From: an uncultured Spirochaetota bacterium
Lineage (GTDB): Bacteria > Spirochaetota > Spirochaetia > SZUA-6 > Fen-1364
Direction of reading: 5' to 3'
NCBI GenBank assembly: GCA_963820525.1
Contig: CAWGAA010000002.1
Location: 32,001 to 96,000, forward strand
Length of the DNA stretch: 64,000 nucleotides
Below the pieces are notes generated by a model. It was not told where the DNA came from, ran no database searches, and saw only the letters and a list, made by a program, of their open reading frames with translations. Made by a program: the position numbers and the translations under genes. This document shows, piece after piece, positions 12,688 to 35,928 of this stretch (within the stretch, counting starts at the first letter, position 1; every line of letters begins with the position of its first letter).

Positions 12688-14392
12688 CTTTGAACTTACA
12701 GGGACTTGCAATGGCTTGTAGGGAGTGCGAAAAAAATAATGTCACAGATAATGTAACAGCTAAGGTGAGGTGATGACGCCCACAAGGCAAGCTCGGCGTT
12801 TCTGGGGCCGTTGGCTCCCTGTGTGGCAGATCAGCTGGCCTTTGCTCTGGAGACGGCGTCACCCTGCACCTATCGGCAGCGGTGCGCCAGTACGCTGCAA
12901 AGTTTATTTCAGAGACACTTCGCCGAATTTTGCGCGCGCTACGAAGCGGACTACGCCCGCCGCCTGGGACGGATCCGCTTGGAGAGGATCCGCAGGGTAG
13001 TCCAGCGTTTCCTGGACTGCGGGAACTACACCAGGGGCGTGGCAAGGATCCAGTGCACGAATCCTAACTGCAAGTCGGAGTACTTCCGGCCCTTCTCCTG
13101 CAAGACGTTCTATATCTGCCCGTCTTGTTCGCAGAAACGCACGCTGCTGTTCGCCGAGTACATGAACGAGCGGCTCATGCTTCGGTTGCCCCACAGGCAA
13201 TTCGTCTTCACCCTGCCCAAGGTCCTGCGGGTGTTCTTCCGACATGACCGGCAGCTCCACGGTGAGATCAGCCGACTCATCCATCGCCTCCTGCAAGACT
13301 TCTTCACGGCGGCCGCAGGCATGAGGATCCGCACCGGCGGTGTCATTGCATTTCAGACCTCAGGGGAGTTCGTGAGATGGAACCCGCACTGGCACGGGTT
13401 GTTCCTTGAAGGAGGCTTCGACCGCAACGGCCGATTCGTTCACATCCCCACGATGAACCTTGCGAAGATGAGCGCCTGCTTCCGCCACAGAGTTGTGGAG
13501 TTCTTCCGCCAGCGACAGCTGTTGAACGAGCGCTTGGCAGAGAACATGCTGGAGTGGACCCACTCGGGATTTAGTGTCGACGGCTCCGTCGGCATCCCCG
13601 CAGGCTCCCCGAAAGCGCGCGAAGCCCTCTCGCAGTACATCGCGCGGCCGCCTGTCTCGCTTAAGAAGCTTCTCGTGGAGGAGGGCGGCACAGACAGCGT
13701 CCTGTACTACACTGAACTCCTCCAGCACCTCCCAGAGCCCCGTACGAGGTTGATCCGTGCCTACGGATTGTACTCCTCACGCGCTCGGGGTACGTGGCTG
13801 CGGATGCCCTACCTTGTACGTCTCGCCCCTGAGGGGTGGAAGCAGGATCATTCGCCTCCGCCTTCAGCTTGCGTCGGTGCCCCCGGCGAGCCCCAATCGG
13901 ACTGTTCGGTCTCCGCGATGGAGTGCCGCTCCGCGTGGGCTCGCCTTATTGCGAAGGTCTACGAGGTCGATCCCTTGGTCTGTCTCAGCTGCGGCGCAGC
14001 GATGCGCGTCTTGGCCGTCATCACCGAGCCGCAGCAGGTCCTCAAGATCCTGCGCCACCTCGTGAAGATCGGTACGCCGCCACCCGGCTTAGACCCTGCT
14101 TCCCTCAACTGACCCTTGTCTTCTTAGCAAGCCTGGGGCACCTATGAACAGTGTCGAGAGCCCATTTCTCGTCGTTCCCTTTTGCGGGACTAGTCTGGCT
14201 TTTCTTTATGCCCGAAGGCCGCGTAGCCCCATCTGTTGGCCCATATTGTTTCCCATTCCTCATTCTCGGCCCGATATGTTCTTGTTGAAGATCACTCAAC
14301 TTGCCTGTGATGGGTTGCAACCGTACTCCGGGCGAGCTCGTCCCGCCAGTCGCTTGCTATGCCCAGACAACACCCTTATAGTAGTTCCTATC
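12688..14392 (+). mobile_element. IS91/ISCR-like rolling-circle element, copy 1
   Basis: Left end CTTTGAAC shared with copy 3; right end …GTAGTTCCTATC followed by CTTA; no IRs or TSD. Confidence 0.88.
12811..14112 (+). CDS. IS91-family HUH transposase with 20-aa in-frame deletion
   Basis: Zn domain (CTNPNC…SCKTFYICPSC), WNPHWH, YIARPP; lacks 60 bp present in copies 2 and 3. Confidence 0.9.
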   Translation: MAPCVADQLAFALETASPCTYRQRCASTLQSLFQRHFAEFCARYEADYARRLGRIRLERIRRVVQRFLDCGNYTRGVARIQCTNPNCKSEYFRPFSCKTFYICPSCSQKRTLLFAEYMNERLMLRLPHRQFVFTLPKVLRVFFRHDRQLHGEISRLIHRLLQDFFTAAAGMRIRTGGVIAFQTSGEFVRWNPHWHGLFLEGGFDRNGRFVHIPTMNLAKMSACFRHRVVEFFRQRQLLNERLAENMLEWTHSGFSVDGSVGIPAGSPKAREALSQYIARPPVSLKKLLVEEGGTDSVLYYTELLQHLPEPRTRLIRAYGLYSSRARGTWLRMPYLVRLAPEGWKQDHSPPPSACVGAPGEPQSDCSVSAMECRSAWARLIAKVYEVDPLVCLSCGAAMRVLAVITEPQQVLKILRHLVKIGTPPPGLDPASLN

Positions 14393-14598
14393 CTTAACTC
14401 CTTGGCGGTAGGATACGTGTCGGTCTTGAGCCTTGCTGGAAGGGCTGACAGTTGAAATACCACGACTTTGACAGGCCTGCGGAGGTACAGCATCCCGTTA
14501 TTGGACTTGACGGGGAGGAAGGAGGCGATAGAATGACAATAACGAGAGTTTGGATGTCGGATTTGCTTAGGATTCAGAGTCCAAATGGGAAATCTCCG

Positions 14599-16533
14599 AT
14601 GAATAGTAAGTTGCTTCATTTGCTATCCACTAGCGCGCTGATCGCGCTTGTTACAATAGCGGCAGGGTGTAATCATCTGCCTGTCACAGCTACTCCGACC
14701 TCCTCATCCACGCTATTCTCAACCAACACACCTAACCTTGTCCCTGCTCAAAAGGCGGCTGCCCTGTATGAACAGAATTTCGAGGAGAGCCCGCTGCAAG
14801 GCCTATCCGAACACGGATCCTGGTCCGTGTCGCTTGACGAGGCCGGAAATCATGTGTTTTGCAACCAGGTCTCTAATAACTGGCAGACTTTTATGTTCGG
14901 TTATGAGAACTGGACGGATTATGCCGTCGAGATGCGAGTTAAACTGCTGAAGCAGAATACCGACCTAAGCGCAGAGATCTATGCACGGATAAACAATTCC
15001 ACCTATGGATATCGAGGCCAATTGTTCTATATGCGGGCAGGCCTAGCATATATTTTACCGTTGGAAAATCTGGGGATAGTCTCCATCACCACCGAGGCGA
15101 ACCACTGGTACATTCTTCGGATGGATGTCGCTGGCAACCAGATCAAGTTTTACCTGGACAACCAGATGATCGCCAGTGCTTCGGACAGCAACCGATCGAA
15201 CGGGATGGCGGGATTTGGGGTTGCCCCAGGCGCAATAGCATGTGTGGATGATATCCGTGCCTGGCCGCTTACGCCGGATGGCCAGATTGCACAGGCAGCA
15301 CCTGCAGATCAAATTGTCAGGAAGGATTCCCTAGCGAAGTATGAAGGCGACTGCACTTTCTGCTTTGTCGATGGCAGCGATCCCTCCATGCCCGTGTGGG
15401 ATAGTGCCGCGGGAGGTTATAAACAACAGCCGGGCGATACAAGGAAACAAACCGTCCTGGACGAGAATTTTGTCGTTCCCGCCAAGCAGGTGACCACGTT
15501 TGAGAACCAAATTGTCTTTATCCGGCCTCATCAAAGGCACGACATTAAAGTTTATGGAACCCTGATCATTAAAGATAGCCTCCTCCTGTGGCAGCAGACT
15601 GAGTATCAACAAACTTATCTAATCATTGAGAAAGGCGGTAAACTGGTCATCGAGAATTCCTATGCGTTTTCAAGCAATCAATTTTGGATTGGCTGGACAT
15701 TTGAAGATGGATCAACCGTCTCGTTCGATCACTTTGTGGGGACGCCATGGTGTAGTATCTGGGGGTCGGTCAACTATACCGCAGCCAATTTCTCCACCGT
15801 AGATCTCACGATCTTTGGGAACGTTCACAATGCCCGCCTGGAAATTTCGAACGCCCATCATGTGGAGTTCGAGTTCTTTCCCCCGCCCGGTACTTATGAA
15901 TTCAGCCTGCCGAAAAAGGAACAGTGGGTCGATTGGAAGATTGACAATATTTGGCCGAATACAACCATCGATATGACGCATTCCTACTTTTATGCGAGGA
16001 GCATCAGCCTCGACTCGAATGTTCATGTCACCATCACAAACACTGTCGATGGTATCAGTGTGGGCTGGGCTATCCATAAGGATACTCCAGGTTTTGTGGA
16101 TTGCGAGATAAAAGGTCTGGGCGAACCCGGGAATGACCAGGGAGTGCTGTACCAAAATACCACCTGGGACCTGCCCTGTATCAATTCATCCCTGACGATA
16201 AAGAATTCCGTGCTGCAGACAGCTTGGCCCTGTTCATATGGATATGTCCACCTGAAAGTTTATGATTCCAATTTATTCGACCCGAGAAATTGGGGCCCAC
16301 CAAGCACATACGAAATCTATCGGTCCAGTATTCATTTCGTGGCCGCTTACAACGGCGGACTGATCTACTTAGAGAACTCCAAAGTTCAAAGTGGTATCGA
16401 GATCAATGGAGCAGGCTCCATTGTGTATGGTTATGGGGTTTCTGCAGTGGATCCGGGAAGCAACTATTCCATCATGCAAGAAAGCGGCGGGAAGTATATG
16501 GAATTGCAATCTGCCGGACCACCGTGGAAGTAA
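14599..16533 (+). CDS. Lipoprotein: DUF1080/ConA-like domain plus uncharacterised ~400-aa domain
   Basis: Lipobox IAAGC; WTDYAVEMRVK…NHWYILRMDVAGNQIKFYLD…GMAGF…VDDIR pattern; C-terminal part aligns with 30818..32101. Confidence 0.75.
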   Translation: MNSKLLHLLSTSALIALVTIAAGCNHLPVTATPTSSSTLFSTNTPNLVPAQKAAALYEQNFEESPLQGLSEHGSWSVSLDEAGNHVFCNQVSNNWQTFMFGYENWTDYAVEMRVKLLKQNTDLSAEIYARINNSTYGYRGQLFYMRAGLAYILPLENLGIVSITTEANHWYILRMDVAGNQIKFYLDNQMIASASDSNRSNGMAGFGVAPGAIACVDDIRAWPLTPDGQIAQAAPADQIVRKDSLAKYEGDCTFCFVDGSDPSMPVWDSAAGGYKQQPGDTRKQTVLDENFVVPAKQVTTFENQIVFIRPHQRHDIKVYGTLIIKDSLLLWQQTEYQQTYLIIEKGGKLVIENSYAFSSNQFWIGWTFEDGSTVSFDHFVGTPWCSIWGSVNYTAANFSTVDLTIFGNVHNARLEISNAHHVEFEFFPPPGTYEFSLPKKEQWVDWKIDNIWPNTTIDMTHSYFYARSISLDSNVHVTITNTVDGISVGWAIHKDTPGFVDCEIKGLGEPGNDQGVLYQNTTWDLPCINSSLTIKNSVLQTAWPCSYGYVHLKVYDSNLFDPRNWGPPSTYEIYRSSIHFVAAYNGGLIYLENSKVQSGIEINGAGSIVYGYGVSAVDPGSNYSIMQESGGKYMELQSAGPPWK

Positions 16534-16859
16534 TTCCATCGAATTTCAAAGGAGCCTCCAGGAACCGCAGATTCTCACGCCGTGATTTTCTAAGAGCGAT
16601 GCCTGCTGCGGTCGACGCAGGATGTTGCGCGACTTGGGTGATCTATCATAGAACCGCTCCCAGTTAGCTGGCGAAGATGCACCGATCTGGTGGTTTGATG
16701 GCAGGATGGATATATAATGAGGATAGAGGTGGAAACGTGACAAAGGTAATTCCCGTACTTCTCGGAATCGCTCTCCTGGCAGGGTGCGCAACCGAATCGT
16801 CGATCTACGACGGAGCGAGGCCGAACCATGTCGTCGCGAACAGCGACGGCTCAACGACG

Positions 16860-17036
16860 TTTGAGTTTCTGTTTGATTTTTTTTGTTACCGAACCTAAGA
16901 GCTTGGGTTTAGCTCCTGTTCCATAAGCGCCATAGACAATGTACCCGGAAGCGGAGCCACTTTTTGGTATCAGTTGTTCCCTCCATGTCTCGCCTCTTTT
17001 AAATAACACCATATTTCCAGGTAATAATGATGCATT
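16860..17036 (-). pseudogene. AT-rich fragment of a right-handed beta-helix protein N-terminus
   Basis: LLPGNMVLFKRGETWREQLIPKSGSASGYIVYGAYGTGAKP; truncated on both sides. Confidence 0.6.
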
Positions 17037-18758
17037 CAGGCTGTCGAAAAAACCAGTTTTCCCAAGAAAATCATTGTTCGGCGCGACGGCAGGATGTAAA
17101 ATAAGGAGTCGAATTCGCCATTCGTGAAGCACGGGAGGGACTTCATGCCGGCATTCCTCATCCCGAATAGATCCCAGATGCTGCTGCTCACACAGGTTGA
17201 CCTTTCGACTGTCGCTCCCGAGGGGAGCGCGGTGTACCTCATCAACGACCTGGTGGATTCTTTGGACACCCGTGCAATTGAAGAATCGTATGAAGTGGGC
17301 TCCGACAATGGACGACCACCCTTCCATCCGAAGACCCTTTTGAAAGTCGCTCTGTTGGCACTTCACAGCTGCCGCTTCTCGTTGCGGAAGATGGAAGAAG
17401 ACACGATGAACAACCTGGGGTACAAGTGGTTGACCGGTGATATGACGATCGATCACTCAACGATGGGACTGTTTCTGGCGCGGTTTGCCGGGGAAATCGT
17501 GGAGTTGTTCAGCCAAGTGGTTGCGAGCTGCGCGGAGCAGAATCTGATCGAGTTCGACCTTCTGGCCATAGACAGCGTCAAGTTGCGGGCGAATGCCAAC
17601 TACAAGCAGAGCAAGACCCTTGAGGGGATCAAGAAGGAAGAAAACCAAATTGCAGCACGCCTGAAAGAGGTCCTGGAGACTGCCTCGGACGCGAAGAGCG
17701 CTGAGGTGGAGGAAGTTCTGGCGTTGAAACGGCGTGCGGAAAGGGTGCGGGAAGCCAGGAAAGTTCTGCTGGAACGATTGGCAGAGAAAAGCCGCGAGGC
17801 AAGCGAGAAGAAGAAGAAGCAAGAGCTTGTTGAAAAGGAAAAGGTCAACATCACTGACCCCGACGCGCATATCATGCAACAGGCGAATGGGGAGAAGAAT
17901 CCAGCGTTTTCGATCACCACAACGACGGATGTGAGCCACGATATTGTGACACATTTCCAGGTGAATGCTGAGGATAATGATGCAGCGGCGTTGCCTGAGG
18001 CGATCGAGGGCAGCCGTCGCAGTACAGGGGAAAAGCACCAGGAAGTAGAAGCGGACTCCGGATTTGCCAGCATGGAGAATTATGAGAAGCTGGAATTGGA
18101 TGGGCAGGAGGCACTGATCCCCGATCGGCGCGTGGATGTGGAGGAAAACGGGACGACGGCGAAAGGGGAGTATGATCGTTCGAAGTTCAACTTTCGAGCG
18201 AATAGCGACAGCTATCGTTGTCCGTGCGGATGGATATTGAGGAATACAGGTTCTGTTGAACTTAACGGCCGGATTTATGACCGCTACGAGAATCCCAGCG
18301 CCTGTGCCAGGTGTACCTATCGCAGTAGATGCACAAAAGGGACGCACCGGCGGGTGTTTCGGAATCGCAATGAAGAGGTTCGCCAACGGATGCGGACGAA
18401 GCTTGATAAGAAAAGATCACAGGGGAGGTACAACAAGCGCGCGCACACTGCAGAGTCGCCGTTCGGCAACCTTAAATGGAACCTGAAGTTCCGCGCAGTA
18501 ATGCGCAGGGGCATAAGGAAGGTGCGCATGGAGGCAGCGCTGCTGTTCATGCTGCATAACTTCATGAAAATGGCGACGGCGCCGGCTTGATTTCGTGAGG
18601 GATCGCGGAGAATTGCCGACAGGGGCGGACAAAGAGCCGGAAAGCAGTGCATCGGTGAGAATCACGGGCAGACCGCTCACCGCTATCGGACATTTGTTAC
18701 ATGCTGCGATAACGATGCACCCCCGGCCCGTGCGCGCTTCGGTTTTTTCGACAGCCTG
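17037..18758 (+). mobile_element. IS1182-family element
   Basis: IRs CAGGCTGTCGAAAAAACC / GGTTTTTTCGACAGCCTG. Confidence 0.92.
17124..18590 (+). CDS. IS1182-family transposase
   Basis: GRPPFHP, AIDSVKLRANA, TDPDA, ADSGF, AESPFGNLK motifs. Confidence 0.92.
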   Translation: MKHGRDFMPAFLIPNRSQMLLLTQVDLSTVAPEGSAVYLINDLVDSLDTRAIEESYEVGSDNGRPPFHPKTLLKVALLALHSCRFSLRKMEEDTMNNLGYKWLTGDMTIDHSTMGLFLARFAGEIVELFSQVVASCAEQNLIEFDLLAIDSVKLRANANYKQSKTLEGIKKEENQIAARLKEVLETASDAKSAEVEEVLALKRRAERVREARKVLLERLAEKSREASEKKKKQELVEKEKVNITDPDAHIMQQANGEKNPAFSITTTTDVSHDIVTHFQVNAEDNDAAALPEAIEGSRRSTGEKHQEVEADSGFASMENYEKLELDGQEALIPDRRVDVEENGTTAKGEYDRSKFNFRANSDSYRCPCGWILRNTGSVELNGRIYDRYENPSACARCTYRSRCTKGTHRRVFRNRNEEVRQRMRTKLDKKRSQGRYNKRAHTAESPFGNLKWNLKFRAVMRRGIRKVRMEAALLFMLHNFMKMATAPA

Positions 18759-18879
18759 ATTGGATTATTGCGACGATAATAGTTGGCATAGCACCTAATG
18801 CAGCCCCAACTATAAGTAATTGTATATCGTGAGATGTAATAGTCACTTATTTTTCTCGCAGTCACTCGTAATTGACCGC

Positions 18880-19581
18880 TTCTTTTTCATTCCCATCGGC
18901 GCGGGGGAGGCTTTATGCGAGGCCTGGAGGCGCTCGGTGGTTGCCTTCTTTCTGGACAAAGGGTTGCTGAACAGGGAGTTCGCCCGCACGCTATTGACCT
19001 GGAGGCACTCGGGGTTCTCCATCGAGAGCGGCACGCGCATCTATGACGCGCAGACTCGGCAGGGCCTCTGTCAGTATATCATTCGCGCCCCGCTTTCCCT
19101 GCAGAAGCTGGAGTGGGACGAAGAACAGGATACCATTACATGGACTTCCTCTCCTACGGGATACTTTCGGGGACAACAGCGCCATTTCTCCTGCCTGGAC
19201 TTCATCGCCCAGTTGACCCTGCACATTCCCCCGCAGGGCAAGCATCTTCTGCGCCGCTACGGGTTGTACGCCTCCAGAGCACGGGGGACCTGGAAGAAGC
19301 GTCCCGCCTTGAGCAGCCGTGCCCCCGAGGGCTGGTATGGTCGCACAGAGGGTAGTGACTGCGTGCCGGCGTGCGCCTCCCAGGACTGGGAGGTCGGCCG
19401 CGCTGAGTGCAAAAGCGCCTGGGCCCGGCTGCTGGCCAAGGTATATGAAGTGGACGCGTGGGCCTGTCCGGCCTGCGGCGGGCGCATGTCGGTGATCGCC
19501 GTTATTCGCGACCCTGCCGAGATTCGAAAGATCATAACGTGTATGAGCAAGCAGGGGCGGGGGCCGCCGTATGAGTGCTGA
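18880..19581 (+). pseudogene. 5'-truncated IS91-family transposase (third variant)
   Basis: WRHSGFSI, QYIIRAP, RRYGLYASR, AWARLLAKVYEVDAWACPACG; HUH and Zn domains missing. Confidence 0.85.
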
Positions 19582-19837
19582 GCGTTCTGCCCCGTTTGAT
19601 TCGACGCAAACGCGGATACCCTACTCCCGATGCGCCCTCAACCGCAGTATGCCCCAGGATCATCGGGAGGTAGCCCGCTGGGCGGGCTTTCGTGGTATAG
19701 AGACGCCCGCCGTACCGTCGATTCGGTTCTTGACGGGGTGAAACCGGCAAGATAGGCTCGCTCTGAGGCCGAAAGTGTGTAATGTGTGGCACTCTCGATT
19801 GCGGGAACAGGAAGACGTAGCGGGGCGAACCGGTGAA

Positions 19838-19905
19838 TCAGTCGACAAATGCTATAAAATGGCTTATCAATTCAGTCGACAAATGCTATAAAATGGCTTA
19901 TCAAT
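19838..19905. repeat. Perfect 34-bp tandem duplication
   Basis: TCAGTCGACAAATGCTATAAAATGGCTTATCAAT x2. Confidence 0.95.
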
Positions 19906-19955
19906 TTTATAAGGAGAACCATATGAAACATAAATTGATATTATCGATAATTTTA

Positions 19956-20520
19956 GAGTCTCCTACGGGGAGAAACCCCCTCGTCTTTAGACGAAGACTT
20001 TAGTAGGCTTGCGGTACGATGAAGCAGTATCGAAAAGCGTCGCACTGCGTCTATGATTTGAAGTATCATATAGTGTGGATCACCAAGTACCGCAAGCCAG
20101 TGTTGGGGAAAGAGATAGGAACCCGCGTAAGAGATCTGATACGAATGATTTGCGCGAGCCTGGACGTAGAGATCGTGAAAGGGAACATCAGCCGCGATCA
20201 CGTGCATCTGCTGCTGAGCGTGCCGCCGACTCTATCGGTATCCAGGCTCGTGCAGCGCATGAAGGGGCTGACATCACGGAAGCTGCTCATGGAAAACAAA
20301 GGGTTGAACAAAACATTCTGGGGCAGGCATCTTTGGGCCCGCGGGTATTTCGTGGCGAGCACAGGGAACGTGACCGAAGAGATGATCGCCCGCTACATCG
20401 AGAATCAGCAGGACACAGAGCGGGACCAAGATGCCGACTTCAAAGTAGAACCGTGATGTCGGCCCCAGTCGGCTTTAGCCGACAAGCGCAAACCCCCCGA
20501 CTTAAGTCGGGGGTGGTTTA
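19956..20520 (+). mobile_element. IS200/IS605-family tnpA-only element
   Basis: Subterminal hairpins (e.g. CCCCCGACTTAAGTCGGGGG); TTTAG at both junctions, so boundaries are ambiguous by a few bp. Confidence 0.9.
20019..20456 (+). CDS. tnpA: IS200 Y1 transposase
   Basis: YHIVWITKYR, DHVH, LWARGYF, YIENQ. Confidence 0.95.
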   Translation: MKQYRKASHCVYDLKYHIVWITKYRKPVLGKEIGTRVRDLIRMICASLDVEIVKGNISRDHVHLLLSVPPTLSVSRLVQRMKGLTSRKLLMENKGLNKTFWGRHLWARGYFVASTGNVTEEMIARYIENQQDTERDQDADFKVEP

Positions 20521-21114
20521 GCACTTGTTTTGGTGAGCTTCAGTGGATGCTCGATTAACACAAATGAGCCGCCTACTGTTACTCTTTCTGCCGATAAAAT
20601 AAATCCGATGTTCGGAACTGAAGTCATCATCACAGCCGATGCTTATGACGAAGATGACGATACCCTGACTTATACTTGGTATATAAATAACAATATACAA
20701 AGTCAACTTGATTCGGATGTTTATTCGGTTTCCTATACTCTGAATCCAACAGTGGAAACCGCTGTTATCATTAGTTGTACGGTATCGGATGGCGAGGATG
20801 AAGCATCCGCCAATATTACCATCACATTCACAGCACCGGTAACTTTATTTCTTAACAATTCTACAGGCTATGTAATCGATGGTGTCTATATAAAACCCTT
20901 ACCATCAGGTACATGGGGTAATGATTTATTCTCCGGTACAGTTGGTGCATATGGTACGGGTTATGTTTATAATGTCCCCGAGGGAACGTATGATATCGAA
21001 GTCGATTCAGGTACGGTACGCTATTGGTCTTTTACAAATATTACCCTTGAAGGTGGCACGACTTTTACTTTAAATCTATTATAATGTATTTTTAGTTAAT
21101 TTTTGAGTATAGAG

Positions 21115-21142
21115 GTCAGGCTGCCCGCAGCCTGACTTTTTT
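21115..21142. terminator. Rho-independent terminator between convergent genes
   Basis: GTCAGGCTGC-cc-GCAGCCTGAC followed by a T tract. Confidence 0.75.
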
Positions 21143-21822: not shown

Positions 21823-21980
21823 CTTAGCATAGCGGGCCGACTGAACGCGTGTGGTAGCATCTACTGATTACTAGGTGCAAGCCACAAAGGCCCGCGTTCT
21901 TTGATATCTCTTATCCAAGTCTTCTTATGCCAAATCCTTTTTCCAATTAAAGAGATATCTTGATAAGCAAATATGCTTAC

Positions 21981-22093: not shown

Positions 22094-22099
22094 CGCGTC

Positions 22100-26784: not shown

Positions 26785-27479
26785 GTTTGCGGACTGATGG
26801 TACCGTCGACCTCCACCACCATCAGCTCACACTCCTGCTGCGCTTTCTGGGCCGAGATCATCTGGTAGGGATTGTCCGTGATGCGCTCTCCGACCGCCTC
26901 GGTGTTGCGTTGCACCGCCGTGGCACTGACCCCGAAGCCCAACGCCTCGCTGAGCATTTCTGCCCCTCGCGCATAGGCTTCGCTCCCGCCGAAGCATGTC
27001 AGCAGATAGCTCATAAGCGGCGAATAGCCAAGGCAACGATCCAGCCCCAGCTTCTCCTCCAGAGGACTCCATCCGCCCTCCCCGTCGCGGAACTTGTAGC
27101 ATCGACGCGGCAGCACCATCGTGGCTCCAAAGCGAGTACGAAACCGCAGATTGCGCATACCCGAATACACAGCCGTGCGCTCGCCGACCCGAACGCCATT
27201 CTCTTGTGTGGGCTCTTTCAAACCTGAAAGTGACCTCCCGTTCCAGGATTTGACCCAGTTCGTAGACGAAGCTCAGAATCCGCTGTTCAACCTGTTCAAG
27301 ATTGCACCTTCCCAGATTGAGCCCTTCGGACAGTTGCTTGACCAGCATCTGGCTGTGCGGTAGAACGTCAGTGATTTCCATGGCCTGTCTCCCCTCCCTA
27401 ACAAGGATTAAGCAAGGTGGAGATAGGCCATTTTCTTTAAAAACTCAATGCCAAAAAACCCGTTCTTGAAATCGCACCC
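26785..27479 (-). mobile_element. ISKra4/ISLre2-like element, frameshifted and 3'-truncated at the oriIS
   Basis: Terminus GGGTGCGATTTC; RTRFG, PLEEKLGL, VSATAVQR, VEVDG, then cut exactly at 26785. Confidence 0.75.
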
Positions 27480-27617
27480 TTTCCAGATCCATCCTTGTGA
27501 GAGGCGAGGTAGCGGTGTATGATCAACCAGAGTCTAAGTAAGTTCCTCCGTTCCAACTCACTGCGTTGGCCTGGATCGAAGATGCGTGATCTATCCTTTA
27601 TGAAAGTGGAAAGAGCC

Positions 27618-30311
27618 ATGTTGAAGAGACTGTCCGTGATGCTTGTCGCCTCGCTCGTGGTCGGATTCCTCCTTAGCTGCAAGTCGGTCCCCGATCGAGT
27701 CAAAGAGTTGGCCGACAACTCTTATTTCCAAGAAGCCTCGACCGTCATCCAAAAGGAGCAGGAGGAACTCTCCAAGAATCCAGACTTGGGGAGAATACGA
27801 GAACTTGAACGTGCACAGAGCCTTCTCGAAGAGCGAGTCGCCGAACACTACGGCAAACAAGTCGAGGAATTGACCGCAGCGGGTAAGGTCAGAGAAGCAC
27901 TCAAAAGAGCTCAGGAGGCGTTTCAACTGTGTCCGTGGTCAGACAGGATCAAATCGACTCGACTCCGCTGCGAGGCGATTGTCAACAAGCTGGATGATCT
28001 CGAAAGAAAATGGATCGGACAAATCTCTTCAGGACAAGTAAGTCCCGACGAGTCGCATGAAGTCCTGAGCGATCTTGCGGCTGTTGTCCCCTCCCTGTCG
28101 GACTCTCCGAAATTGCATCAGCTTCGGGGAATCGCCACTCAGGCAGCGGTTGAGTTCTGGGGCGAGAAGTTGGCGGAAGAAAGGCTGCACCTCTCTCAGT
28201 CGGATGAGTCCCAGATGGAAACGGATCTCTGCGCGCTCCTTGGCAACCCCAGAAAGGCCACGGAGATTGCGAATGCTGTCCGAACCGTCGGGGATCTTGG
28301 CTCACGGGACTTCCCCAATCCTGACGTTCTTTCTGGCCTCGTTGATGTGCTCTATCTGGACAACACAGATCAGGTCTTTGACGGGAAGACTCAAGCAATC
28401 AAGAGGGTTCTCCAGGCGTCGTTCGAAGATTGGACGGCCAACGGCTTTGTGCAAAGCCTCGTGTCCGCAAGCGTGTCCTTCGATACCGTGAAGGAGGCGG
28501 AGTTCCTTCTCGAATCAGTACCTGGTCTGAAGGATGCAAGTTCTTACAAGCACGCGCTTGCTCTTGGGCACTTGAACCGCGCGAAGCAACTATTAAAGGG
28601 GGGAGTCTCAACCACGGTGGCGTTGCTGCACCTTCAGCGCTCGAAGTTCGTTGATTCCGATTCGAAAGATGCGGGCGATCTGGGGGCAACGGAGAGAAGC
28701 GCGCGGACTTACCTTTCGACTGTCAATTACCCTGACATCACGCTTTCCATGGACATCAACCCAGCTATTTCGTTGGACATCCAGGGCGTGATGTATGCAG
28801 CCTTTTCCAGCGCATTCTTGGGGCGCTCACAAGAGGACAGACCTTGGCACTTGGTGGACTCTGGGACGGGCGCTCAAGACGTATCCATCGTGATCGACAG
28901 CGCCGAGTTGGCTGTCCCAGAGCTGAGCAAGCTACCCCGTGTGAATTCGCAGTTTCTCTCCCATTACGAGACAGTTCCCAACCCCGCAAAAGAGTCGCTT
29001 CGGTTTCAACTCTCGTGGGAAAAGAGCCAAGTTGAAATGGCGGAGAGCGACTATGAGCGGGCGGTCTCATCGTACAACTGGGATCCAAGCGATTGGAACC
29101 TCAACAGGGTGAACTCTGCCTACACCCGCTACAAGTGGGCAATTTCGAGCTACAACTCCCTCGTGGATCAGTTCAACATGACGCCGTCCACTATCGAACA
29201 GCCCGTCTTTTTGCCTTACAGCTACTCGCAAGGGGATGTAAGATTCGGATGTCGGATATCCATCACGTGCAAGGTTGGTACGAAGGAATACCATTTCACG
29301 GGCGAGTCCATGGACAGGTCGTTCGTAAGGATAGGAACCAAGCCGACCGACACAAACCAATCCGCGCGGAGGGACGTTGGTCTGACGTTCTCCCCCACTT
29401 TCGAGAGATTTCTCGACCATATCAACGCGGCGTTGAGAAGCGTTTGCGACCAGATCGACCCTCTGCTACTGTCCTTGAATTACCCAAGTTATGCGACGCT
29501 GTCTCCTGACGAAACCGTCCTTCTCCAATGCTTGATGCATCCATGGGGCTTCAGCAAGTCATCGGTGCAACGCCCTGATCTGCCAGCGTGGGAGAAGGAC
29601 GCGCTTGCTCTTGTTTCGGTCGCTCAACTCCAGCTCAATTTACCGAAGATTGAGCTTGTCGCTGGTAGAGCGAAGCTCAAGGGGCCCCTATCCCCTGAGG
29701 CTGCGGCGAAAGCCCTTGGGCCGTTCGTTTGCCTCATCAAGTCAATCAAGGACCGTCAAGTGGTATCGACTGGTTCGGGCACCGTCATCGGGCCAAACGG
29801 CCTCGTCCTGACTTGCGCTCACATTCTGAACGCCCCTGATATCGAAATCGACCTCTCAGAAGGGAGGTACCAGGGCAGCTATCAGAGCGACATCGTCTTC
29901 GTCAACGAGAAGAGCGATGTTGCAGTCCTGCGTGCCAAACGACTCGCCAACAACGAATGGGCCTCTGTTCGATTGAAGGGTGGGACTGTGAAAGGAGAGC
30001 GGATCATCGCGATAGGCAACCCAGCCATTGGTCAGGAAGCCCTGAATGTTGGCGGCGTCTCAACTGGAGTCGTCTCGAATCCAAAGGTCGCAGCGTTTGG
30101 GCGGGACCAACTGGTGGGAGATATCACGGTTGCGTCTGGATCAAGCGGCGGCCCTTTGTTCAGCCTTGACAGCGGCGAGCTTGTTGGAATCGTCCAAGCG
30201 GTCACGCGGCCAGGTCTGGATGTGGAGGGGGTATCTTCATCTGGCTCATACTGCTTGGCAGCACCTGCGGACATGTTACCAAAGTGGCTGGGACTGCAAT
30301 ACAAGCATTAG
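27618..30311 (+). CDS. Large lipoprotein with C-terminal trypsin-like (S1) serine protease domain
   Basis: Lipobox LLSC; GSGTVI, TCAHIL, DVAVL, GNP, GSSGGPLF catalytic triad motifs. Confidence 0.85.
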   Translation: MLKRLSVMLVASLVVGFLLSCKSVPDRVKELADNSYFQEASTVIQKEQEELSKNPDLGRIRELERAQSLLEERVAEHYGKQVEELTAAGKVREALKRAQEAFQLCPWSDRIKSTRLRCEAIVNKLDDLERKWIGQISSGQVSPDESHEVLSDLAAVVPSLSDSPKLHQLRGIATQAAVEFWGEKLAEERLHLSQSDESQMETDLCALLGNPRKATEIANAVRTVGDLGSRDFPNPDVLSGLVDVLYLDNTDQVFDGKTQAIKRVLQASFEDWTANGFVQSLVSASVSFDTVKEAEFLLESVPGLKDASSYKHALALGHLNRAKQLLKGGVSTTVALLHLQRSKFVDSDSKDAGDLGATERSARTYLSTVNYPDITLSMDINPAISLDIQGVMYAAFSSAFLGRSQEDRPWHLVDSGTGAQDVSIVIDSAELAVPELSKLPRVNSQFLSHYETVPNPAKESLRFQLSWEKSQVEMAESDYERAVSSYNWDPSDWNLNRVNSAYTRYKWAISSYNSLVDQFNMTPSTIEQPVFLPYSYSQGDVRFGCRISITCKVGTKEYHFTGESMDRSFVRIGTKPTDTNQSARRDVGLTFSPTFERFLDHINAALRSVCDQIDPLLLSLNYPSYATLSPDETVLLQCLMHPWGFSKSSVQRPDLPAWEKDALALVSVAQLQLNLPKIELVAGRAKLKGPLSPEAAAKALGPFVCLIKSIKDRQVVSTGSGTVIGPNGLVLTCAHILNAPDIEIDLSEGRYQGSYQSDIVFVNEKSDVAVLRAKRLANNEWASVRLKGGTVKGERIIAIGNPAIGQEALNVGGVSTGVVSNPKVAAFGRDQLVGDITVASGSSGGPLFSLDSGELVGIVQAVTRPGLDVEGVSSSGSYCLAAPADMLPKWLGLQYKH

Positions 30312-30317
30312 GTCTGT

Positions 30318-30346
30318 CAGACAACACCCTTATAGTAGTTCCTATC
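30318..30346 (+). mobile_element. Minimal orphan oriIS end, 29 bp
   Basis: CAGACAACACCCTTATAGTAGTTCCTATC is identical to the termini of copies 1 and 3; followed by CTTT. Confidence 0.9.
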
Positions 30347-30444
30347 CTTTGCAGCTGCTGACACTATCGAAAAGCTCGATCTATCAGAGAAGGTAGTCTG
30401 GAGGGCGCAAGCTTCTGGAAGTGCTCCCCACTGCCGCTACCGTT

Positions 30445-30720
30445 CCCTGGCGGTCGATGAGTCAGGCAACGTCTTTCTGGTGGGATATGCAAACGGTCCC
30501 GGACCCTATGAGTTCGGGAACGAGGTTTCCCTCATTGGCACGCCGTACGGGGGAAAGCCTGTTCTGGTGAAGTATGACTCTTCGGGCAGAGCGCAATGGG
30601 CACGGGGCTTTGATTGCCAGACCGAAGCGTATCGATTCGTCGGGGTGGATGGCCAAGGGGGAGTTTACGTCGCAGGCGGGATTCGAGAGTATTGGACAGC
30701 CAGACCCTGCTGCCAAGTTT
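30445..30720 (+). pseudogene. Beta-propeller (SBBP-like) repeat fragment
   Basis: LAVDESGNVFLVG…LVKYDSSGRAQWAR…VDGQGGVYVAG; no start or natural end. Confidence 0.5.
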
Positions 30721-30817
30721 TATTTTCGTTCGGCCGCAGGCGTTCGGTGGGGCGCCCCCTTGCTCTGCCCTGGATGCCGCCTTGTTGTGCGAGATTTATT
30801 AAGCATCCTTTCCGTTT

Positions 30818-32101
30818 CTACCACGGCCGCCCCTGGGTTGCGAGCTCCCGGTAGTCTCCGCCATCGACCTCAATAACCTGGAACGGCAAAACGGCATCAC
30901 GGCTTGTGATACCGTAGCCGTAGACGATGGTCCCAGGGTCTTTCACCTCGATGTCGTAGCGGATTTTGCATTTCTCGAGGTATGACTGAGCACCGCCGTA
31001 GGCCGCGAAGTGATCAATGGTGGAGTCATATATTTCGTAGGTGGCCTGACCGTCAACCCGTGGGTCAGCAAGGTTTGAGTTACGCACTACCAGGTGCACT
31101 CTGCCATAGGTCACCGGCCAGGAGCGCTGCAGTTTCGACTTGATGATTCGAAGACTCGATCCGTTGGCAGGGATGCTCCAGCTCCTGTCTGCGTAGTAGA
31201 CGCCATCGTCCTTCTCTGGATCGCCAAGGCCGTTGATCTCTGCGTCAATGTAGCCTGCGCCAAAGTAGCTGACGGCCCAACCCATTGAAAAGCCGCTAGG
31301 CGTGTCACGCACTATGGCGTTGCATCCGTTTGGCAGACTGATGTCGCGCTCAAAGATGTAGGAGTCTGCAATCGATACGGTCGTATTTGGCCAGATGCCG
31401 CTCAACTCCCAGTTATACCACCGACGCTTCTCCGGAAAGGTAATGTCAATGCTGCTGTTCTCCGGCGGGTAGATCTCAAGCCAGACATGATGAGCATCTG
31501 TTATCTGGACGTTCGAGTCGTAGACACCGCTCTGGAATGTAAACTTGATTGTGGAGAAGTTGACTGCTGAGAGATCGATCCGACCCTCCGCAGAGGTCCA
31601 AGGGTTGCCCACAAAATGGTCATAGATGACAGTGGCGCCGTCCTTGAATTCCCAGATCACCCAATACTGGTTTCCCGAGAAAGCGTAGCTGTCTTTTATG
31701 TCCAGGATGCCCCCGCTCTCTACCTCAAACCGACACTGTTGATGTTCGGTCTGGTCCCACAGCAGGAGAGAGTTTCTAATATGCAGGGTGCCGGCGATCT
31801 GGATGTTTGCTCGTGCAGTGGGCCGCACCCACACGATCTTGTTCTCGACCGTGACAACCTGGCCGGGCGCTACGGCAAACGTCTGGTCCCACACGATTTG
31901 CTCTCGCGTGTCTGACGCCTGTGGAGCCCATCCTCCCCTACTGTCGTCCCAGACCGGCATATCGGGCTCGCTGCCGTCAACCCAGCTGAAGACATCATCA
32001 CCTTCGTATTTTTCCCGCTGATTCTTGGTCGTAGTTGTGATCGGGCATCCCGCAAAGCATACTGCGAGAACGACGGCCCCCAAGAAAAGGAGCCTTCTCA
32101 T
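30818..32101 (-). CDS. Uncharacterised lipoprotein, homologue of the C-terminal domain of 14599..16533
   Basis: Lipobox FAGC; end-to-end similarity to that domain. Confidence 0.8.
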   Translation of the reverse strand: MRRLLFLGAVVLAVCFAGCPITTTTKNQREKYEGDDVFSWVDGSEPDMPVWDDSRGGWAPQASDTREQIVWDQTFAVAPGQVVTVENKIVWVRPTARANIQIAGTLHIRNSLLLWDQTEHQQCRFEVESGGILDIKDSYAFSGNQYWVIWEFKDGATVIYDHFVGNPWTSAEGRIDLSAVNFSTIKFTFQSGVYDSNVQITDAHHVWLEIYPPENSSIDITFPEKRRWYNWELSGIWPNTTVSIADSYIFERDISLPNGCNAIVRDTPSGFSMGWAVSYFGAGYIDAEINGLGDPEKDDGVYYADRSWSIPANGSSLRIIKSKLQRSWPVTYGRVHLVVRNSNLADPRVDGQATYEIYDSTIDHFAAYGGAQSYLEKCKIRYDIEVKDPGTIVYGYGITSRDAVLPFQVIEVDGGDYRELATQGRPW

Positions 32102-33027
32102 GATATTGCCTCCTTGATAGTCCTCCTGTTGGACCGAGCCAGTACGGGCAGGAGAGATTGAGCATGTGCAAGGCCTGCTCCAGCCTCGGCCACAGCACGC
32201 CTGCCACCTTTTGAGAGACTGTCGCGTTCATATGCCCGAAGGAATAGCTTGCGTACGCAAAGGCTCGAGCAGTGAGCCCTGCAAGCGATTGGCAATCTCC
32301 TAGCGGTACTCGCCAGTGCAGCCATCTCTGAGATGGACTCCAGCTCAGCTTAGAGCTCCTGAAAACCAAACAAGAGTCCCTGCCGAAGGGAGAGATTTTC
32401 CAGACCCAGTGGGACGTATTCCACAGCACGTTTCCCACCGTCCCCCAGGAGGGATGGATCTGCCTCAGCGCAGAGAGGAACTGTCAGCCAAGGGAAAAGA
32501 ATATAAGAGAATGGAGACGGGGCCCTAGCATCTTCCGAAAAGACGGTTCCAACAGATGCGGCTGGAATCAGGAAAAGCGCAACCTTCTTCATATTGCCCC
32601 CGAAAGAGTTTTCCGGCTTTTCTGGCACCTTGATCCAAAGCGGCACGCACCTATTTGGCTAGTCGAATATTATAGTGCAAAGCATCTCACATTGCAATGC
32701 CCTCTGCCGCCCAGCCTGAGCGGGCGAGCTGAAAGCCCTGAGCGGCGCCGCCTGTCACGCGGCACGCCCTGAACCTGCGCCCCGAGGATTCGATGCTGGA
32801 CGCCCTGGGCATTCTCTTCGAGGCGGACTATACCACGGAGGGGCCGGCTGATCGGACGCGTGAGCGCTCGCACAAGAAAGAAGCCGTTCGGGTGGAGAAG
32901 GACGGCCTGATGCCGGACGCGGAGCAGCCTTCGGTTTCTGCGCCGGAGGCGTGAGCGAGGGCGTTCCGCCCGCGGGAAGAGGCGCGCGGCAAGATTGCCG
33001 CGCCGGTGCCTGCGGCGATCCGAACGG

Positions 33028-33317
33028 CTACGGCGCGCAGAATGCGTTGAAGGTCTTGAACATCTTCTCGAAGCTGGCGAGTGTGGTCGCGGATATCTCT
33101 TCAGCCAGGGAAGCGCTGTTCTCCGCGAAGTACCTGGCCGGCCGGGTGGGGTCGAACTTCGGCTTTGCGGTCTGAACAATCGATTCGAAAGAGCGTGAAA
33201 AGGCCTCCGTCATCCGCACGCCGCCGCCCTTCAGCTGGCTCTTCTTGATCAGTTTTTCCAGCTCGCTTCGATACTCCTGGTTCACCAGGTTGAGGTAGAA
33301 ATCCTTGTCGAACATGT
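33028..33317 (-). pseudogene. C-terminal fragment of OLD-like ATPase gene (related to 58833..60544)
   Basis: 33168..33320 matches 58833..58985 (153 bp, about 7 mismatches by eye). Confidence 0.88.
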
Positions 33318-35008
33318 CTTTGAACTTGCAGGGACTTGCAATGGCTTGTAGGGAGTGCGAAAAAAATAATGTCACAGATAATGTAACAGCTATGGTGAGG
33401 TGATGACACCCACAAGGCAAGCGCGGCGTTTCTGGGGCCGTTGGCTCCCTGTGTGGCAGATCAGCTGGCCTTTGCTCTGGAGACGGCGTCACCCTGCACC
33501 TATCGGCAGCGGGGCGCCAGTACGCTCCAAAGTTTATTTCAGAGGCACTTCGCCGAATTTTGCGCGCGCTACGAAGCCGACTACGCCCGCCGCCTGGGAT
33601 GGATCCGCCTGGAGAGGATCCGCAGGGTAGTCCAGCGTTTCCTGGACTGCGGGAACTACACCAGGGGCGTGGCAAGGATCCAGTGCACGAATCCTAACTG
33701 CAAGTCGGAGTACTTCCGGCCCTTCTCCTGCAAGACGTTCTATATCTGCCCGTCTTGTTCGCAGAAACGCACGCTGCTGTTCGCCGAGTACATGAACGAG
33801 CGGCTCATGCTTCGGTTGCCCCACAGGCAATTCGTCTTCACCCTGCCCAAGGTCCTGCGGGTGTTCTTCCGACATGACCGGCAGCTCCACGGTGAGATCA
33901 GCCGACTCATCCATCGCCTCCTGCAAGACTTCTTCACGGCGGCCGCAGGCATGAGGATCCGCACCGGCGGTGTCATTGCATTTCAGACCTCAGGGGAGTT
34001 CGTGAGATGGAACCCGCACTGGCACGGGTTGTTCCTTGAAGGAGGCTTCGACCGCAACGGTCGATTCGTTCACATCCCCACGATGAACCTTGCGAAGATG
34101 AGCGCCTGCTTCCGCCACAGAGTTGTGGAGTTCTTCCGCCAGCGACAGCTGTTGAACGAGCGCTTGGCAAAGAACATGCTGGAGTGGACCCACTCGGGAT
34201 TTAGTGTCGACGGCTCCGTCGGCATCCCCGCAGGCTCCCCGAAAGCGCGCGAAGCCCTCTCGCAGTACATCGCGCGGCCGCCTGTCTCGCTTAAGAAGCT
34301 TCTCGTGGAGGAGGGCGGCACAGACAGCGTCCTGTACTACACTGCCTACAACGACTATTTCCGAACAAACGCCAAGCGGTTCTCCGCCTCTGACTTCTTG
34401 GCCGAACTCCTCCAGCACCTCCCAGAGCCCCGCACGAGGTTGATCCGTGCCTACGGATTGTACTCCTCACGCGCTCGGGGTACGTGGCTGCGGATGCCCT
34501 ACCTTGTACGTCTCGCCCCTGAGGGGTGGAAGCAGGATCATTCGCCTCCGCCTTCAGCTTGTGTCGGTGCCCCCGGCGAGCCCCAACCGGACTGTTCGGT
34601 CTCCGCGATGGAGTGCCGCTCCGCGTGGGCTCGCCTTATTGCGAAGGTCTACGAGGTCGATCCCTTGGTCTGTCTCAGCTGCGGCGCAGCGATGCGCGTC
34701 TTGGCCGTCATCACCGAGCCGCAGCAGGTCCTCAAGATCCTGCGCCACCTCGTGAAGATCGGTACGCCGCCACCCGGCTTAGACCCTGCTTCCCTCAACT
34801 GACCCTTGTCTTCTTAGCAAGCCTGGGGCACCTATGAACAGTGTCGAGAGCCCATTTCTCGTCGTTCCCTTTTGTGGGACTAGTCTGGCTTTTCTTTATG
34901 CCCGAAGGCCGCGTAGCCCTATCTGTTGGGTTGCAACCGCACTCCGGGCGAGCTCGTCCCGCCAGTCGCTTGCTATGCCCAGACAACACCCTTATAGTAG
35001 TTCCTATC
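33318..35008 (+). mobile_element. IS91/ISCR-like element, copy 3
   Basis: Left end CTTTGAAC; 74-bp deletion in the 3' non-coding part; ends TTCCTATC followed by GTTC. Confidence 0.9.
33441..34802 (+). CDS. IS91-family HUH transposase (intact, 453 aa)
   Basis: Near-identical to 25143..26504. Confidence 0.93.
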   Translation: MAPCVADQLAFALETASPCTYRQRGASTLQSLFQRHFAEFCARYEADYARRLGWIRLERIRRVVQRFLDCGNYTRGVARIQCTNPNCKSEYFRPFSCKTFYICPSCSQKRTLLFAEYMNERLMLRLPHRQFVFTLPKVLRVFFRHDRQLHGEISRLIHRLLQDFFTAAAGMRIRTGGVIAFQTSGEFVRWNPHWHGLFLEGGFDRNGRFVHIPTMNLAKMSACFRHRVVEFFRQRQLLNERLAKNMLEWTHSGFSVDGSVGIPAGSPKAREALSQYIARPPVSLKKLLVEEGGTDSVLYYTAYNDYFRTNAKRFSASDFLAELLQHLPEPRTRLIRAYGLYSSRARGTWLRMPYLVRLAPEGWKQDHSPPPSACVGAPGEPQPDCSVSAMECRSAWARLIAKVYEVDPLVCLSCGAAMRVLAVITEPQQVLKILRHLVKIGTPPPGLDPASLN

Positions 35009-35928
35009 GTTCGTCCGGATTCAGCTCAGGAGCGTACGGAGGAAAGTACTCCACATGAAGCCGAGAAGTTTTTCGGCATAACTCAAGAATGGGCACCTCC
35101 TCGATGCGTGTTACTATTGTCCAGTAGCGCGATGACGTGCCCACGGAGATGGCGCAGAACCTGCCTGAGAAATACCGTGACTTCTTCCTGTCTGATATTA
35201 TCCCAGAAGAATAGACCGTAAAGCCCAAGCCACCTGCGGGTAGGACTTACCGACGCACCAGAGATGATCGATATGCGTTCATTGGAAAAGCGATGGCGCA
35301 TGAAGGGTGTCTGGCCTACAGGTGCCCACGTCTTTCTTATACTGGGAGTCAACATAAAGCCCGATTCATCGATGAAAATCAGGTAGGCGCCCAGCCAAGT
35401 GGCGTTTTTTTTATCCTATTCCAGTTCTTAGTTTTCCACTCCTGGATGGCAGCCTCGTTTCGCTGCAGAGCACGCCTCTCGGGCTTTTGTGGGCTCCAAC
35501 CCAAAGCATGCATAAGCCGTCCGACATGGGTATAGTGATATCTGATGCTGAATTTCTTCTCGATAAGTGTTGAGATCCGTCGTGTGGTCCAGATATCCGT
35601 CTGCCATCCAAATGCTATTGGTCCTTGAAGTAAGTAGCGTAACAACTGAGCTTTCTGCTTTGTATTCATTTTTGTCGGACGGCCAGGGGAAGCAAGAACT
35701 CTCAATCCTTCTTCTCCGTTTCTATTCCATCGATCACGCCAGCGCATTACAGAACTGGCGTTACATCCTATCTGGCGAGCTATTTCGTTTAGTGAGAGCT
35801 CCTCTTCAAGCAGGGCGATCGCTTTGAGACGGCGAGATCGCAATACATCAGCTGAACCTTTTAGCCTCATGATGAACATCCCCTCCCAGGGTGTTCATAT
35901 TATATTGCATTATATATGCTACAATCAA
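35009..35928 (-). mobile_element. IS630-family element (third type), 3'-truncated at the oriIS
   Basis: HTH orfA 35379..35879, A8C slip site, IDESGF, DNSNTH, YAPELNPDE, then cut. Confidence 0.88.

Follow-up and report, generated by a model that had tools for sequence, protein, structure and literature searches.

Background

How did five near-identical copies of a 29-nucleotide sequence (29-mer) come to lie in one orientation, each followed by different DNA, within 64,000 nucleotides of the genome of an uncultured Spirochaetota bacterium from sediment? The stretch in question, here called the window, comprises positions 32001-96000 of C2, a 718-kb contig in an assembly of four contigs (5.05 Mb, guanine-plus-cytosine (GC) content 0.60); coordinates within it carry the prefix w. 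On the evidence of the sequence, the repeats are the oriIS-type right ends of one new insertion sequence (IS) of ~1.76 kb, a rolling-circle element of the IS91/ISCR family. The original prediction, made from the window, had taken the region to be a Helitron-like platform on which an IS91-type element collects genes in units of cargo plus oriIS.

IS91/ISCR elements spread resistance and catabolic genes, and to our knowledge no more than a few enterobacterial elements have shown how they start, stop and choose their targets. The family is marked by unlike ends (oriIS and terIS), subterminal palindromes, the lack of a target duplication, a tetranucleotide next to oriIS and frequent one-ended transposition (PMC13181058). 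The questions addressed here are accordingly these: 1) to which family the repeated ends belong; 2) which boundaries of the units are constant and which are variable; 3) where the short motif that follows each end comes from; 4) why the copies point in one direction; and 5) whether the DNA between the ends travelled with them.

Census of the ends and identity of the element

An exact match search recovered the five 29-mers of the window on the + strand, ending at w14392, w21822, w26784, w30346 and w35008 (7430, 4962, 3562 and 4662 nt apart in succession) and followed by CTTA, CTTA, GTTT, CTTT and GTTC, just as first described. Their Y position is T in four and C in one, and 100 shuffles of the sequence gave no match. 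The original prediction had proposed a search of the genome for the 29-mer; with up to 4 mismatches allowed, this yielded nine copies, every one on the + strand of C2, and no match on the other three contigs. They end at C2 7071, 13983, 14664, 14799, 46392, 53822, 58784, 62346 and 67008, the last five being those of the window and the first four lying 17-25 kb to its left. All nine are identical or 1 nt apart, and the cluster spans C2:5.7-67 kb. The tetramers that follow read, from left to right, GTTT, GTTA, GTTC, GTTT, CTTA, CTTA, GTTT, CTTT and GTTC, with G or C followed by T-T (hereafter S-T-T) after each end. Three of the window ends belong to close copies of a transposase gene (open reading frames (ORFs) of 433, 453 and 453 aa), while two are solo ends attached to 137 and 29 nt of the element, again in agreement with the prediction.

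In all three full copies, Pfam searches detected Zn_Tnp_IS91 (PF14319) and Y2_Tnp (PF04986) above their cut-offs, and the NCBIfam model NF033538 ('IS91 family transposase') gave 135.7 bits against a cut-off of 125; the HWH motif and an AYGLY tyrosine motif can be read in the sequence. On plasmids, the best matches are to ISCR-type transposases from proteobacteria, with 39-40% identity over 81% of the protein. The rmtE2-linked ISCR-type transposase of plasmid NZ_KU130396.1 is 39% identical over 374 aa, and the terminal 10-mer of the end recurs downstream of its gene. The narrower model NF052416 (ISCR clade Ia) scored 128.6 bits against a cut-off of 925, which leaves the element outside that clade.

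The right end lies 280 nt past the stop codon of the transposase gene (tnp), with an imperfect palindrome ~40-80 nt inside it (within the last 150 nt). The domain matches, this position past tnp and the common 10-mer together bear out the predicted IS91/ISCR-type oriIS downstream of a transposase gene. The element length is obtained as the 1691 nt of copy 3 plus its 68-nt deletion. The left end in its long form (w33318/33321) begins with CTTT, has a small hairpin 8-24 nt inside, and is present in copies 1 and 3, in a fragment on contig C3 and in a metagenome contig (L019); the number of independent left junctions that define it is one (copy 3 / C3). The palindrome and the hairpin correspond to the arrangement given for the family in PMC13181058. 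By reading, the left and right ends are unlike and show no terminal inverted repeats, though no inverted-repeat search was made, and no target duplication longer than T-T was found at the units; the prediction had expected neither inverted repeats nor long duplications. The 453-aa protein lacks a helicase domain and the Rep-Hel architecture, Pfam giving Zn_Tnp_IS91 and Y2_Tnp alone, so that Helitron-likeness fails as a statement of membership and survives as an analogy.

One constant and one variable boundary

Unit borders were drawn from BLAST matches and alignments, and every unit closes with the same end plus S-T-T (Table 1). The units have their right end in common and begin at ten different positions of the element, the element content per unit being 11, 29, 132, 137, 678 (twice), ~1327 (twice) or 1682 nt, or the full length. 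Together with the 21 nt of donor flank at the left of copy 1, this agrees in structure with the claim of one fixed and one variable end, the pattern of one-ended transposition. The copies are ~1% apart, mostly at private sites, with copy 1 and solo 21822 having in common one single-nucleotide polymorphism (SNP) and the C of CTT. Solo 30346 is too short to contain the subterminal palindrome.

To the left of the window, units B, C, D and E stand head to tail with a spacer of exactly GTT each time (stack C2 13306-14816). The junction at w14396-14402, to the right of copy 1, has the form of the head-to-tail pieces at C2 13983/13987 (C2 13306-13993 is homologous to w13715-14402). The breakpoint G^AACTCC (the caret marking the break) recurs in unit C, in this neighbour of copy 1 and in the 60-bp deletion of copy 1.

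Unit B is itself interrupted by an IS21-like element with rve and AAA_22 genes (C2 10161-13305), flanked by a 7-nt duplication, AACTCCT, which starts at the nucleotide of three other breakpoints in the IS91 element. A further IS21-type trace, the N-terminal fragment of an IstA-like gene (w12330-12668, +), ends exactly at the left junction of copy 1; its continuation was not found after copy 1, and hence the flanks of this copy do not represent a simple insertion.

Origin of the trinucleotide that follows the ends

S-T-T follows 13 of 13 ends of the element and its close relatives, namely the nine of this genome and those at loci L018, L019, L004 and L007; in a more distant relative (L005) the end is followed by TTT. 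At the fourth base after the nine C2 ends, T, A and C occur but G does not, CTTG being absent and GTTC accounting for two of the nine. The original prediction was right that S-T-T-N stands after every window end, but to read this as a relaxed STTN target beside oriIS is probably mistaken. At all three stacked junctions, the end plus GTT continues into element-internal sequence (units C, D and E), and the native left neighbours of these three start points are CCG, CCT and TAG rather than S-T-T. Likewise, the DNA to the right of solo 21822 has a paralogue (92%) that reads GGA in the place of CTT. S-T-T is therefore foreign to the abutting DNA in four junctions.

The left flanks offer a complementary view. 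Read by eye from the alignments, they end in TT at the boundary of maximal homology in 6 of 11 units (copy 3, copy 2, solo 21822, L018, C and E), and in 8 of 11 if 1-2 nt of common bases are allowed (adding D and B), against an expectation of ~4% from base composition. In the case of copy 3, whose left end sits inside a gene fragment with a paralogue at w58833-58988, the paralogous target reads ...ATGTCTT^CGATCC and the insertion ...ATGTCTT^element...end GTT^CGTCC. This junction requires no change at all under insertion after T-T with a carried GTT, and one substitution under the canonical rule. On the top strand, the breakpoint G^AACTCC reads as an N^AAS site, in keeping with the same cleavage register. 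These junctions suggest a shifted register, in which the transposase would cut after S-T-T, the trinucleotide would ride on the oriIS end and joining would take place after T-T; we put the odds on this register at about even.

The gene fragments that form the target of copy 3 (w32790-33320) are paralogues of an AAA_15/AAA_21 ATPase gene of the OLD/AbiEii-like kind (w58925-60607, -), which has a small partner (w58543-59331, -) and with it possibly forms a defence pair; a further copy is found at C3 2869-3682.

Co-orientation and G^TT junctions would also be accounted for if the ends were integron-like, attC-type recombination sites of a cassette array without an integrase of its own. Integron integrase genes do occur on C1 and C3, the matches over the cut-off being those on C1, and the paralogue of the right flank of solo 21822 lies ~34 kb from an integrase gene, 3 nt after a GTTAGGC core-like motif. 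We nevertheless find this explanation hardly credible: C2 has no integron integrase match, the end folds as an IS91-type subterminal palindrome rather than as an attC-type hairpin closed by its ends, three of the nine junctions are CTT instead of GTT, and only 2 of 13 ends have bases matching RRRY behind the GTT. A scan for R''/R' hairpins of attC sites had no discriminating power, the integrase-adjacent regions scoring no higher than controls.

A candidate mechanism

From these features we infer the cleavage register, the self-targeting, and the status of the short units as abortive products rather than leftovers of deletion. Replication-coupled transposition would start at the fixed right end and proceed leftwards, and sloppy termination would then leave a graded series of units anchored at the right end: very short abortive units (11, 29, 132 and 137 nt), partial units (678 nt, twice, and ~1327 nt, twice), a near-full unit (copy 2) and full ones (copies 1 and 3), with slight read-through into 21 nt of donor flank in copy 1. 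Abortive initiation may consist of a nick and a short stretch of synthesis, after which the nascent 3' end is rejoined to the transposase-bound 5' end. The G/C-T-T would travel with the element, new units joining just after a target T-T, and a resident end plus GTT could itself serve as a target, which would build the head-to-tail stack at C2 13306-14816. Taken as a whole, namely as an element of a known kind, in a spirochaete host and active now or recently in the 718-kb replicon, that formed a swarm by sloppy termination with a carried trinucleotide and self-targeting, we regard this account as fairly probable.

Several observations weigh against it. The strict left boundaries of unit A, copy 1 and solo 30346 lack TT; units A and B begin at a native GTTC and so fit the canonical termination rule as well, as does copy 3, given CTTC in its target paralogue against GTTC after the copy itself. 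Mating-out experiments with IS91 found the tetranucleotide by oriIS to be target-derived, a CTTG donor giving CTTG in 51%, GTTC in 41% and others in the remainder (PMC13181058, Table 2), so that a carried trinucleotide would be a departure from the type element. In the plasmid ISCR relative, AGTA and not S-T-T follows the common 10-mer. The argument for carriage draws on four junctions and on the flank statistics of 11 units, several of which perhaps have a common history. The region is full of other IS and of internal lesions (the 60-bp and 68-bp deletions and the IS21-like insertion), and some solo ends may be deletion leftovers. Finally, the assembly was checked against the short-read contigs of four runs, none of which bridges a full copy with both flanks, and depth was uninformative.

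This last point, and the derivation of the assembly from a metagenome, would suit an artefact of assembly, with the identical ends as points of false joining in a repeat-rich region. Such an artefact appears exceedingly improbable in view of the private SNPs (~1%) and private indels of the copies, of junction sequences that are every one unique, and of independent metagenome contigs that carry the same end in other contexts. The junction sequence of copy 1 recurs in contigs of two sediment runs, which are perhaps the source sample and hence not independent.

The lesions raise the further alternative of ordinary decay, by which independently inserted full copies were trimmed through deletions, other IS and recombination, their orientation reflecting strand bias or chance and GTT being a preferred target. 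The setting is indeed an IS graveyard (four IS630 copies, IS5-type, IS200-type and IS21-like elements and a 2.16-kb multicopy element), copies 1 and 3 have lost 60 and 68 bp, and unit B was split by a 3.1-kb insertion. Random deletions, however, would not give T-T left edges in 6-8 of 11 units, and trimming leaves unexplained both the three right-end pieces stacked with exact GTT spacers and the non-native GTT or CTT at four junctions; we hold ordinary decay to be a distinctly improbable explanation.

Table 1. Units of the IS91-family element and other features of the C2 island (C2, contig coordinates; w, window coordinates)
Feature	Coordinates	Strand	Description
Unit A	C2 5745-7071	+	~1327 nt; begins directly after the stop codon of the Ldh_2 gene
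Unit B	C2 ~9504-10160 and 13306-13983	+	left boundary as in unit A; split by a 3.1-kb IS21-like element
Unit C	C2 13987-14664	+	678 nt of element
Unit D	C2 14668-14799	+	132 nt of element
Unit E	C2 14803-14813	+	11 nt of element
Copy 1	w12670-14395, including CTT	+	end 14392; element proper from ~12688/12691
Copy 1 left extension	w12670-12690	+	read-through: 21 nt matching the upstream flank of copy 3
Copy 1 tnp ORF	w12811-14112	+	433 aa; 60-bp in-frame deletion
AACTCCT after copy 1 end and CTT	w14396-14402	+	7 nt, element-internal; unrelated DNA beyond
Solo 21822	w21686-21825, including CTT	+	137 nt of element; left flank ends TTTT
Copy 2	w25103-26787, including GTT	+	1682 nt; shorter than the long form by ~100 nt at its start; left flank ends ATT; end 26784 (C variant)
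Copy 2 tnp ORF	w25143-26504	+	intact, 453 aa
Solo 30346	w30318-30349, including CTT	+	29 nt; 6 nt past the stop codon of the gene for the 930-aa protein with protease domain
Copy 3	w33318-35011, including GTT	+	long form; left end 33318/33321; end 35008; 68-bp deletion near right end
Copy 3 tnp ORF	w33441-34802	+	453 aa
Diverged IS91-family tnp remnant	w2921-3604	+	three tblastn pieces, 55-68% identity to copy 2 protein
Diverged IS91-family tnp remnant	w18877-19569	+	tblastn 42% identity; Y2_Tnp
Inter-end segment	w14396-21685		GC 0.51; 693-aa ORF, IS5-type gene, diverged IS91 remnant, IS200-type element, immunoglobulin (Ig)-domain and ACT-domain fragments
Inter-end segment	w21826-25102		GC 0.52; 181-nt repeat, IS630, NHL propeller gene
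Inter-end segment	w26788-30317		GC 0.55; 930-aa lipobox protein with protease domain
Inter-end segment	w30350-33317		GC 0.57; 427-aa lipobox protein, gene fragments
693-aa ORF	w14452-16533	+	GC 0.49; weak lectin-domain match; signal-like hydrophobic stretch after an internal Met
IS5/IS1182-type DDE transposase gene	w17124-18590	+	between ends 1 and 2
IS200-type (Y1_Tnp) element	w19950-20525	+	between ends 1 and 2; 5 near-identical genome copies
IS630-family element (helix-turn-helix and DDE_3)	w22282-23397	+	between ends 2 and 3; several genome copies
NHL/SBBP beta-propeller gene	w23679-24752	-	signal-peptide-like N-terminus
930-aa protein gene	w27519-30311	+	lipobox-like N-terminus; C-terminal trypsin-like (HtrA-type) protease domain
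427-aa protein gene	w30818-32101	-	no known family; lipobox-like N-terminus

Orientation of the copies

The common orientation extends beyond the ends themselves. In tblastn searches of C2:5.7-67 kb, 13 of 13 high-scoring segment pairs lay on the + strand, representing 10 loci of four sequence families with three diverged IS91-family remnants included; the two remnants that the prediction had placed in the same orientation are indeed both on +, Pfam detecting the one at w18877-19569 but not the one at w2921-3604. If 7-10 loci are taken as independent, the chance of a common orientation is roughly 1 in 64 to 1 in 500. We consider the common orientation real. Stacking at resident ends accounts for units C, D and E and the neighbour of copy 1 only; for the other ends the likeliest cause is either local hopping on the same strand or, on one replication arm, strand-specific insertion into single-stranded DNA. 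In IS91, only the bottom-strand circle integrates (PMC13181058).

Cumulative GC skew and the strand bias of long ORFs are both weak, and neither places the origin of replication. By the skew extremes, the C2 island (+) and an IS91-family cluster at C1 1.26-1.30 Mb (-) would both lie on 'falling' arms, a signal too weak to count; two clusters on falling arms in opposite strands do not favour a simple replication-strand rule.

Other clusters of diverged IS91-family fragments are also locally co-oriented, all on - at C1 1.26-1.30 Mb and all on - at C3 3-60 kb, a regularity that the decay explanation can claim in its favour. No terminal motif similar to ours was found up to 420 nt downstream of the genes of these other diverged copies. 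At C3 835-859 kb, three copies of a 24%-identical Y2-type gene lie near an integron integrase-like gene.

The intervening DNA and the capture of genes

The DNA between the ends has a GC content of 0.51-0.57, compared with 0.59-0.62 in the surrounding replicon, which suggests a foreign origin. The prediction described this DNA as rich in genes of surface or secreted proteins; four or five genes uphold the description by their N-termini (lipobox and signal calls were read by eye, without a predictor), while much of the rest consists of other IS (Table 1). These low-GC genes for lipoproteins and secreted proteins lie next to the ends, and their capture as cargo is possible.

The central proposal of the original prediction was that repeated one-ended transposition built the region from units of cargo plus oriIS, in which case each inter-end segment would have arrived together with the end on its right. 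The constant and variable ends stand, and with them the 21 nt of copy 3's upstream flank in copy 1; a truncated copy on C3 has at least 530 nt of that flank in common with copy 3; and the low GC and the lipobox- or signal-like genes would suit imported cargo. Ends of 82 nt suffice for mobilisation of IS91 in trans (PMC13181058), so that the full copies could in principle move the 137-nt solo end along with upstream DNA. The proposal falters, however, at the units themselves. A one-ended product must hold the whole IS between its cargo and oriIS, and the two solo ends among the five window units (137 and 29 nt) are therefore not direct products of such events, the 29-nt one being, moreover, devoid of the subterminal palindrome. 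The four inter-end segments are each unique in the genome, their embedded IS excepted, and no donor copy of any cargo was found there. Copies 2 and 3 have insertion-type left junctions of their own inside the supposed units, and the 'cargo' consists in large part of gene fragments and of IS630, IS5-type and IS200-type elements. The C3 flank is 94% identical as against 98% for the IS part, which does not favour one recent joint move. The documented read-through is short, amounting to 21 nt in copy 1, to ~100 nt if the boundary of copy 2 is the true left end, and to the common flank of at least 530 nt at the truncated C3 copy. All told, we think it quite unlikely that the array grew as a gene-collecting platform.

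Two other features of the window deserve record. A 2.16-kb element (w10045-12209) occurs in five copies of at least 99.8% identity (three on C1, one on C3 and one in the window); it contains a 544-aa ORF without a Pfam family and a DUF6788 ORF, and is probably an unclassified insertion sequence. A 5S rRNA gene (w47332-47445, +; 92.5 bits) is the sole Rfam match in 96 kb, and, no 16S or 23S gene being reported in the window, it may be an orphan on a secondary replicon.

Occurrence beyond the genome

The element is narrowly distributed in the sequences covered here. The exact 23-mer of the end gave no locus in a search of one genome per species, and a protein-based scan of other species gave one, a Spirochaetia metagenome-assembled genome with the C-terminal 76 residues only. 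DNA matches to the right end were obtained in 4 of 60 relatives, all from one genus of the same family. In L004 (G002:C59, ~1470-1690), from a related genus, a right-end fragment of ~190 nt is 95% identical, has lost 1 nt within the end and has no transposase gene within 1.5 kb; a further GGGTTCCTATC motif, followed by TCT and left out of the count of ends, stands 3 nt upstream of this fragment and is possibly a stacked mini-end. A metagenome scan for the element returned two contigs, one with a full long-form copy (99.2%) and a new right flank, the other with a solo end of 58 nt.

Homologues of the Ldh_2 gene to the left of the island are only 33-38% identical in 25 relatives, and the relatives accordingly allow no empty-site comparison. 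In wetland runs, contigs break off at w25102 and w26786, but these loose ends do not match each other's flanks and so are not an empty site of copy 2. A contig from a wetland-metagenome run (X3) lacks w30350-30389, the end plus CTT being joined directly to w30390; this join, seen in one contig with 33 nt on its short side, may point to a related population with a deletion variant anchored at the end.

Relation to known systems and significance

The new element resembles the IS91 family in the strict sense (IS91, IS801 and IS1294/IS1294b) in its HUH transposase with an N-terminal zinc-binding domain, its unlike ends, the oriIS downstream of tnp, the subterminal palindrome, the absence of a long target duplication, the short T-rich motif by oriIS and the structural marks of one-ended transposition (a constant oriIS end and a variable other end). 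One-ended transposition occurs at 1-14% in the natural elements and at up to ~50% with the transposase alone (PMC13181058). It differs from IS91 in the fourth base that is never G, in the carried-looking trinucleotide, in having no orf121-like upstream gene and in its spirochaete host. Many of its units, furthermore, are shorter than the element, and the available part of PMC13181058 contains no description of premature stops for the family.

Its kinship with ISCR elements (ISCR1, ISCR2, ISCR8 and the rmtE2-linked element) is expressed in the best plasmid protein matches and in the terminal 10-mer, which is identical in the rmtE2-linked element. ISCRs typically present one constant oriIS end beside varied genes, and are often truncated and present in several co-oriented copies. 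Unlike them, the spirochaete element has a recognisable left end, and its neighbours are lipoprotein and secreted-protein genes and other IS rather than resistance genes. ISCR8 is found in multiple copies in environmental plasmids (PMC13393415). In Sphingobium herbicidovorans, two IS91 copies with a conserved oriIS downstream of the gene flank accessory catabolic genes, and a circle of IS plus cargo has been observed (PMC5737581); there the circle was seen directly, whereas the present case offers neither a circle nor a donor-recipient pair for cargo.

The likeness to Helitrons is one of analogy, the present element having no helicase and a bacterial host and not being a member of that group. 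Helitrons and Helentrons produce 5'-truncated and multi-terminus copies, capture flanks by bypassing an end and form tandem arrays of end pieces. It is conceivable that a shifted register and self-nesting, with insertion after any T-T and each resident end plus S-T-T as the best target for a further unit, generate a growing, orientation-preserving array here too, and that solo ends mobilised in trans shuffle the lipoprotein and secreted-protein genes upstream of them, as a bacterial counterpart of the Helitron multi-terminus arrays; we judge this extended scheme unlikely.

The locus constitutes a natural record of many events of one element, in which premature stops, read-through, stacking and a carried-looking trinucleotide can be followed side by side. 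In this organism, it also delimits an island of 62 kb and low GC content, on a secondary replicon, with variable genes for lipoproteins and secreted proteins. What deserves testing is the carriage of the trinucleotide, the premature stopping and the targeting of resident ends, with the gene-collecting platform staying at the level of a hypothesis. If confirmed, these features would provide a refined cleavage model for part of the IS91 family, and would explain why co-oriented, truncated ISCR-type ends are so frequently found beside unrelated genes.

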